Shown piece after piece: positions 58,301 through 59,524 of a DNA stretch of 64,000 nucleotides; within the stretch, counting starts at the first letter, position 1; each line of letters opens with the position of its first letter. The position numbers and the translations under genes are program-made. Under the pieces are notes generated by a model that made no database searches, was not told the origin of the DNA, and was given only the letters and a program-made list of their open reading frames with translations. Source of the DNA: Eledone cirrhosa (Eukaryota); NCBI GenBank assembly GCA_964016885.1, contig OZ024740.1, positions 304,978,001 through 305,042,000 of the forward strand. Direction: 5' to 3'.

Positions 58301-58493
58301 AAAATGTAGAGGCGAGAGTGGATGGTTTTAATTGTTTTGGTGTGTTGTTAATTTGTTTGTTTGTTAATGGCAGCAATGGGAGTTTGTGCAGTGGGGTGAT
58401 AGTGGAGGGTGGTGCTGGGTGATAGCTCGAATGTTTTTTTCCAGTTCTTTTGCCAGATTCATTATGGCTAAAAAAGAGGAAGAAGTTTCCTGT
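55356..58493 (-). CDS. LINE ORF2: APE endonuclease + reverse transcriptase (start undefined; frame open from 58493)
   Basis: [72 protein letters not shown]. Confidence 0.95.
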
Positions 58494-59524
58494 TTAGAAG
58501 ACTGTTGGTGACTGTGGTAGTGGTTATTTTTATGTAGGTTATGGTTTTTGTTTTTGCTTTTATTTTTAATTTTATTTTCATTTATCCGACGGGTCCCCGG
58601 GAGATGGGTAAAGGGACAATCCCGGTCTAAACACAATCTGTCTCGCAGGGAAAAACGGCAGATTTGTGGATTCCTTGTTTGAGTTATTGGTGGTTGTGTT
58701 GGTGTTAAATTAGAGTATGTATTATGGTGGTGGCTGTTTGTGGGGATAGATCGTTTTGTCCTAGGTAAATGGGTGAATTTGCAGCCACTATCCGTACATA
58801 TTCTATAGCGTAGAGAGTAGCGGCAAATGATGGGGTTTCGAGTGGGTGGGTATGTGGGTGTGGGTGTTGTGAGAGGTGTAGATGATGGTTTGGGTAGGAT
58901 TTGACGACCTTTGTGGACTGTGGGAGGGAGAGTTCTTGTTCTGGTATTAGAAGGTAAATTCCTTGACATAGCAGTAGACAAAAATGTTGTAGTAGTAGTA
59001 GTAGGCAGAGATGTTGGCAGTGGTGATGATTGGACTGCTGGGCCAGAGAAAGGATGTGGCGTTTCATGCTGTGAGACAGAGGCTACTGGGGGGTCAATAG
59101 TTTCATTTAGTAGATCGGCCATTGTTGATGAATCAAGGAGTGGTTCACACTGTTGTTGTTGTTGTTGCTGTTGTTGATGTTGTTGTTGTAGCTGTTGTTG
59201 ATGTTGTTGTTGTAGCTGTTGTTGTTGTTGCTGTTGTAGCTGCTGTTGTTGTTGCTGCTGCTGCTGGACAGCATTCGAAGAGAAAACACACCGTAGTTTA
59301 TCCAAATGTTTATTGATTAATTTAAAAGCAATTTCGATTTGCTTTAATTTATTTTGAATCTGTTGTTCAGATCGAGTTTTCAAAAATTGAACTGTACGTT
59401 TAGCAATGTCGTTCAGAGATGAAGCATCTATATTTTCTGTTTGGGAAAGGCAATGCCATGTGTTTATTAGAATGTCGATTTCATTATCAGACCAGTTCTG
59501 TTTGGATTTTTGCTGGTTAGCCAT
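58364..59524 (-). CDS. LINE ORF1: Myb/SANT-like N-terminus, polyQ, two CCCH zinc fingers
   Basis: WSDNEIDILINTW..IAKR..RSEQQIQNKLK, a Q-rich tract, and C-x8-C-x4-C-x3-H at 58769-58825 and 58604-58660. Confidence 0.88.
   Translation of the reverse strand: MANQQKSKQNWSDNEIDILINTWHCLSQTENIDASSLNDIAKRTVQFLKTRSEQQIQNKLKQIEIAFKLINKHLDKLRCVFSSNAVQQQQQQQQQLQQQQQQQLQQQHQQQLQQQHQQQQQQQQQCEPLLDSSTMADLLNETIDPPVASVSQHETPHPFSGPAVQSSPLPTSLPTTTTTTFLSTAMSRNLPSNTRTRTLPPTVHKGRQILPKPSSTPLTTPTPTYPPTRNPIICRYSLRYRICTDSGCKFTHLPRTKRSIPTNSHHHNTYSNLTPTQPPITQTRNPQICRFSLRDRLCLDRDCPFTHLPGTRRINENKIKNKSKNKNHNLHKNNHYHSHQQSSKQETSSSFLAIMNLAKELEKNIRAITQHHPPLSPHCTNSHCCH

Follow-up and report, generated by a model that had tools for sequence, protein, structure and literature searches.

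The LINE copy on the reverse strand of the analysed stretch of Eledone cirrhosa DNA (64,000 nucleotides, here called the window) seems to express its second open reading frame by programmed -1 ribosomal frameshifting. With a probability of about 0.8, and judged from the conservation of its sequence, the best reading is that ribosomes translating ORF1 would slip at a U_UUU_UUA heptamer (58475-58469) and produce a fusion of ORF1, endonuclease and reverse transcriptase.

The ORF1/ORF2 junction of a young LINE family

The element belongs to what we call family A and extends from 55269 to 60048 on the (-) strand, within a (TA)n-rich repeat. It had initially been annotated as an intact LINE, and this holds for its two ORFs, which are both open, but not for the 5' UTR, which is cut short at about 60048; 15 other copies extend further. 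The 5' UTR holds two tandem units of about 237 nt each (59536-60013, (-)), found as BLASTN self-repeats in the copies, and the 3' tail (55269-55288, (-)) is made of two to three 10-nt tandem units followed by (TA)n. ORF1 (58364-59524, (-); 386 aa from the AUG at 59524, in a frame open over 59548-58364) has a weak Myb/SANT-like match at its N-terminus (PF13837, E 0.0023, below the cut-off), a polyQ tract, two C-x8-C-x4-C-x3-H fingers read as a pattern from the sequence, which we take to be of the CCCH type, and, at the C-terminus, a short amphipathic stretch 3' of the slippery site. The ORF2 frame (55356-58493, (-); 1045 codons from stop to stop) has the domain order of an APE-type LINE: an AP endonuclease (LNAQG at 58298-58284; Pfam PF03372/PF14529 at about 58250-57627) is followed by the reverse transcriptase (PF00078 at about 56741-56010). 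Its best PDB match, and nearest solved relative, is L1 ORF2p (E 1e-21), and the ETH motif aligns to residues 43-45 of that protein, which are catalytic.

Recomputing the frames bore out the initial description of the junction: ORF2 lies in the -1 frame relative to ORF1, with an overlap of 130 nt between the two, the last stop before its open frame is a TAA (58496-58494, (-)), its first in-frame AUG (58052-58050, (-)) lies within the endonuclease domain, 3' of LNAQG and LTETH, and two heptamers share the phase of ORF1, tct ttt tta at 58475-58469 (U_UUU_UUA) and gaa aaa aac at 58439-58433 (A_AAA_AAC; both (-)). The junction has two features of a frameshift signal, i.e. a heptamer in phase with the upstream ORF and a -1 frame that is open into ORF2 without a start of its own, for 1037 codons past the heptamer. 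The -1-frame linker from the slippery site to the endonuclease (58299-58468, (-)) comprises about 57 codons, and both frames would be read until the ORF1 stop at 58366-58364. A start at AUG 58052 would lose the N-x-x-G and ETH motifs. The overlap and the lack of an AUG ahead of the endonuclease do not fit termination-reinitiation of the L1 type, and the context of the ORF1 stop, UAAC, does not fit UAAUG coupling of the SART1 type; a UAAUG at 58464-58460 was rejected as a coupling site, its AUG being in the ORF1 frame and lost in the sister subfamily A2. Since synonymous recoding gives a P of 0.45 for some in-phase heptamer in the overlap of this copy, the heptamers of the window copy alone mean little, and the evidence is their conservation.

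Family A is very young and abundant. An exact-pattern search of the 3.0-Gb host genome found the junction in 581 copies, and all 40 scored matches, the window included, are 100% identical across 58000-58700 (701 nt). Among 100 matches listed, the T run at the junction has six bases in 95, five in 3 and seven in 2; as the initial annotation requires, the copies are not fused and those of family A have no upstream in-frame AUG, and with this many copies a sequencing error or private indel can be rejected. The copies have a fixed 3' end, a simple-repeat tail and variable 5' truncation, as in LINE dispersal, and ORF1 is intact in 22 of the 26 fetched copies that hold its AUG (30 of the loci had been chosen for identity at the junction). 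Fused master copies were rejected as well: of 20 loci, most of them selected because their open frames were of unusual length or their matches were split, 12 are 5'-truncated into (TA)n, 7 are ordinary and one is a T7 fusion (L036), itself 5'-truncated. The long open frames found in the protein search are thus explained by truncation into (TA)n and by this one copy. The label CR1-like, or CR1 group, which we assume for family A, comes from motifs and the tandem 3' tail. A protein database search yielded only 5 relatives, without genomic context, and further protein searches of the same genome returned mostly the same LINE families.

Several further properties of the copies were observed. Of 21 copies examined (L031-L050 and the window), 20 abut a (TA)n microsatellite with their 3' end and the remaining one is masked; this suggests a target preference. 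At least 8 copies seem to be 5'-truncated at one base, 58446, located 22 nt past the heptamer (4 of 20 loci and 6 pattern matches, 2 of them shared); this may reflect microhomology with (TA)n or a feature of the RNA. The polyQ tract of ORF1 (59150-59265, (-)) differs in length among copies with the frame kept, so that ORF1 has 383-396 aa, and each of the 5' UTR units holds a donor-like GUGAGU in most copies.

The window also contains other elements. A 5'-truncated copy of a fourth LINE family of this genome, family D, is located at 24790-27938 (+); its ORF1 ends in G_GGA_AAC UAA at 25108-25117, ORF2 follows in the -1 frame without an AUG, and the same arrangement of G_GGA_AAC plus UAA is present in 15 of 18 fetched loci of this family, two being fused by A-run indels. 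At least two more LINE families, presumably RTE-like, are represented by fragments with a PHD finger directly after the RT domain (36065-37033, 38023-39615, 39804-41219 and 46354-47646), and an array of tandem units, repeating about every 60 nt and 95-98% identical, occupies 29182-30768.

Conservation of the heptamer and the RNA around it

The initial annotation had proposed that both heptamers should be judged by aligning the junctions of related copies. This supports U_UUU_UUA, which is in phase across a whole clade, but not A_AAA_AAC, which is unconserved: subfamily A2 (about 74% nucleotide identity) has T_TTT_TTA_G in 11 of the 14 copies that reach the junction (19 fetched), whereas the second heptamer reads GAG AAA AAC in A2 and is absent from the other families. 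It was therefore rejected as the main site and could be an accessory site at most. Two further families of the same genome, B and C, have ORF2s that are 38% and 39% identical to that of family A, different ORF1s and overlaps of 271 and 226 nt, yet the -1 phase is kept; there is no AUG ahead of N-x-x-G, and T_TTT_TTA is in phase in 7 and 4 junction-spanning copies, respectively (from a set of 20 loci, 4 of them off the motif used). Further relatives come from metagenome and bin contigs: L071, L072, L075 and L078 have U_UUU_UUA in phase, 6-9 nt past the stop at which the -1 frame begins, and in L163 its place is taken by A_AAA_AAC. These five loci and families A, B and C form one clade with a support of 100/100, in which U_UUU_UUA is present in 7 of 8 members, A_AAA_AAC in the remaining one, and ORF2 is in the -1 frame in all 8.

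This conservation exceeds what the encoded protein would require. Under the codon use of each element the probability of nnT TTT TTA is 0.005-0.021, that spelling occurs in 1 of 36 Phe-Leu pairs elsewhere in these elements, and UUA accounts for only 4-19% of the Leu codons in the seven U_UUU_UUA members. Part of the conservation is nevertheless at the protein level, because Phe-Leu also begins the conserved amphipathic stretch of ORF1. As judged from its presence throughout the clade and from codon choice, the junction feature is real and under selection. We also observed that the ORF1 N-termini differ within the clade, with a PHD-like Cys pattern in family C and Myb/SANT-like sequence in families A and B, as judged by eye (L057 compared with L066 and the window), and that the same members share the CCCH-like fingers, the heptamer and the amphipathic stretch after it.

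A wider scan covered 99 sequences, 96 foreign loci and the three own families. It lost 62 of the 96 foreign loci, which had no endonuclease start or less than 250 nt upstream; 37 loci were usable, and without the 11 that lack an overlapping upstream ORF of 150 codons, 26 remained. The overlap is in the -1 phase in 23 of them and in the +1 phase in 3. A strict in-phase heptamer is present in 18 of the 23 -1 loci as compared to 6.5 expected, and in none of the three +1 loci; the nominal P value of 2e-9 is indicative only, since the loci share ancestry and pooled values overstate their independence. Heptamers occur 22 times in phase and 6 times in the two other phases combined. Besides U_UUU_UUA, the -1 loci carry A_AAA_AAC, G_GAA_AAC, C_CCU_UUA and U_UUA_AAC plus stop; no heptamer was found in L096 and L130. 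Widening the set to first triplets such as G_GA gives 21 of 23 versus 9.4 expected, with the qualification that the set was widened after G_GAA_AAC had been seen; G_GA-like first triplets are among the slippery sites in use, according to the available part of a 2016 review (PMC5009743).

The stops around the heptamer point in the same direction. From the heptamer to the ORF1 stop, the -1 frame is open across 1148 codons, a length in which 111 stops would be expected from ORF1 bodies and the +1 frame has 89; the zero count is partly built into the definition of the overlap, so that what is informative is how long the open stretch is. Measured from the ORF1 stop, an open ORF2 frame reaches 21-132 codons upstream in 18 of 21 loci, as far as the heptamer; beyond the heptamer the frame closes after a median of 12 nt, in line with neutral expectation (KS P 0.26). 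On this pattern of stops, the openness from the heptamer onward is the footprint of ORF2 entry at the heptamer.

Among the scanned material, L092, L116, L157 and L158 are related LINEs with a +1 overlap and without a -1 heptamer. L156-L163 are eukaryotic LINEs within prokaryotic genome bins, most likely as a result of host contamination. Viral contigs gave 5 weak RT matches, all without an endonuclease.

The RNA downstream of the heptamer contributes little. The weak gcca..tggc hairpin noted initially does exist (58452-58468, (-); 4 bp, GCCA/UGGC), but it begins directly after the heptamer and is thus no standard stimulator; with zero spacer and no signal over shuffled sequences, we rejected it. 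The 70 nt 3' of the heptamer fold with -7.2 kcal/mol (z -0.17), no better than shuffles, and longer windows reach -3 to -9 kcal/mol. Across 21 loci there is no conserved 3' structure (mean z -0.14 versus 0.20 in the upstream control, P 0.41), z being below -1.5 only in L131, L095, L075 and L072, and no stem-loop was found 5-9 nt downstream by a folding model confined to local pairs without pseudoknots. For this reason we do not file the junction as a full retroviral two-part signal. A two-sequence consensus fold that pairs the U run with a downstream AAAAG was discarded as too thin, and a ribosome at the site would unwind it; an Rfam search gave only two chance matches to TA repeats.

Alternative routes to ORF2

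Termination-reinitiation without an AUG, as in L1, would have the ribosome restart at a near-cognate codon after ORF1 and make a separate ORF2 protein. The available text of several papers states that changing the ORF2 AUG of L1 to a different sense codon costs little (PMC1965478, after its ref. 59; PMC2881922, PMC5972666), near-cognate codons are present around the ORF1 stop (CUG 58373, AUU 58352, UUG 58301), no stimulator was found for a frameshift, and half of the foreign -1 loci (10 of 20, including L078 and L163) do carry a Met that lies in frame with ORF2 ahead of the endonuclease or at its start, in positions that are not conserved. Reinitiation leaves three observations unexplained: the fixed -1 phase, the selected codons of the heptamer, and the overlap, whose open frame reaches the heptamer and extends past it only as far as chance would allow. 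We therefore consider this route improbable.

Slippage of the RNA polymerase on T6 (or A7) could add one base and thus create a fused ORF in the RNA. The homopolymer runs are there, and fused copies do exist (the two T7 matches among the 100 listed; L036; L191 and L192 of family D). Yet slipped RNAs would found most new copies if there is a cis preference, which is known for L1 and assumed here, and T7 is no commoner than T5 at the junction. This explanation is very unlikely, and the same holds for the idea that the heptamer is a by-product of the conserved Phe-Leu and that ORF2 is reached by internal entry, from AUG 58052 or by supply in trans from rare fused copies. The position of Phe-Leu at the start of the amphipathic stretch and the existence of a few fused copies would suit the latter idea, but the codon choice is far from the usage of each element, AUG 58052 would delete the endonuclease motifs, L036, the only fused family A copy examined, is 5'-truncated, and the vast majority of copies in this very young family are unfused.

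Least probable of all is that UUUUUUAG serves as a 3' splice acceptor through which an upstream exon is spliced in frame onto ORF2. The base after the heptamer is a G in A, A2, B, C, L071, L072 and L078, and family A has a preceding pyrimidine tract as well as GUGAGU in the 5' UTR units, but in L075 U_UUU_UUA is followed by A and L163 has A_AAA_AAC, both without AG, no CAG variant occurs, the -1 phase of ORF1 in 8 of 8 clade members is unneeded for splicing, and a T is found four bases before the putative exon in 615 copies and another base in none, so that no retrotransposed spliced copy was found (an upstream exon with a T at this place would be missed). Spliced or slipped copies are thus absent or at noise level. 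In a contig from run X2, which comes from another organism and is of RNA origin by guess, a sequence about 80% alike in ORF2 rematches 58446-58477 with a loose end at 58477; this would fit a conserved island in the absence of splicing. The four sequencing runs examined were contigs, in which neither level, strand nor rare splice forms are visible.

A putative frameshift signal among known systems

We favour -1 frameshifting at 58475-58469 over these routes and propose the following course of events: Most ribosomes would read through to the ORF1 stop and make the 386-aa protein. A minority would slip back by one base at U_UUU_UUA, which encodes Phe-Leu 351-352, and then translate 1037 codons in the -1 frame. 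The predicted fusion protein of about 1390 aa would consist of ORF1 without its last 34 residues, the unconserved linker, the endonuclease and the reverse transcriptase; the short C-terminal helix of ORF1 would thus be swapped for the linker. Since no 3' RNA stimulator is evident, the rate of the shift is probably low and would rest on the intrinsic shiftiness of the site, to which the rare UUA, if decoded slowly, or an unstructured 3' sequence may add. Such a mechanism would provide a high ratio of ORF1 to ORF2 and tether the enzyme to the ORF1 protein, as in Gag-Pol.

To our knowledge, the route of ORF2 translation in LINEs is known from two elements only, L1 and SART1, and both use reinitiation. 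In mammalian L1 and silkworm SART1 this reinitiation depends on the translation of ORF1, as stated in the available parts of PMC2881922, PMC5972666 and PMC5009743. These elements share a bicistronic LINE RNA with family A; the difference is that, according to these sources, a 63-nt spacer separates the ORFs of L1, which reinitiates at an AUG or close to one, and SART1 uses UAAUG, whereas family A has a 130-nt overlap of its ORFs and no AUG attached to the ORF1 stop. The initial claim that studied LINEs use reinitiation is accurate for these two, but precedents for frameshifting exist. A figure legend in PMC5911963, citing papers from 1992 and 1998, states that ORF2 of the Dictyostelium elements TRE5-A and TRE3-A requires a -1 frameshift. 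The two elements resemble family A as APE-RT non-LTR elements with a stated -1 shift, and differ as amoebozoan elements targeted to tRNA genes, for which the accessible part of that paper gives neither a slippery site nor an experiment; the accessible texts of PMC3159450 and PMC5633606 do not contain the word "frameshift". Frameshifting has also been invoked for other non-LTR elements, namely Drosophila HeT-A, where it lies inside gag and there is no RT (PMC5009743, in part), and LINEs of Paramecium, for which a +1 shift, read-through or reinitiation was proposed from a consensus sequence (PMC5405496, in part).

The closest likeness of the junction is to retroviruses. The gag-pol frameshift site of HIV-1 is U_UUU_UUA (PMC5009743, available portion), and as far as this source goes the parallel includes the same heptamer followed by G, the same phase, and a nucleic-acid-binding ORF followed by an AUG-less RT ORF in the -1 frame. 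In contrast to HIV-1, family A belongs to the non-LTR elements and encodes an AP endonuclease; it has no protease that could cleave the fusion, and no stem-loop stimulator was detected.

U_UUU_UUA is also the site of the 6K/TF frameshift of Semliki Forest virus. There, -1 frameshifting takes place without a 3' base-paired structure (PMC5009743, in its available portion). The likeness to the alphavirus site lies, on the basis of this source, in a structure-free -1 shift that yields a minor product with a swapped C-terminus, and the difference in its setting, a viral structural polyprotein with a short trans-frame product.

The same review mentions HeT-A, TART and L1, and in its available portion lists no LINE with a slippery site where ORF1 meets ORF2; the available portion of PMC4120745, on 448 ORF1s of the Jockey superfamily, contains neither "frameshift" nor "overlap". 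A slippery site at such a junction was not found in the open literature searched, including the accessible parts of PMC5006619 and PMC11835228, a scope outside of which lie the descriptions of CR1, T1/Q and TRE from the 1990s, subscription papers and Repbase reports, which may well have proposed frameshifting. The -1 frameshift route is thus scarcely described for LINEs.

The exactly placed and conserved heptamer makes the route of ORF2 translation in a LINE a testable question. If frameshifting does take place, the fused ORF1-ORF2 protein would imply a particle architecture unlike that of L1, and it would explain the AUG-less ORF2s that are truncated by gene callers. Moreover, the junctions of these elements would then represent a very abundant class of -1 sites in cellular genomes, apparently one without a structured stimulator.
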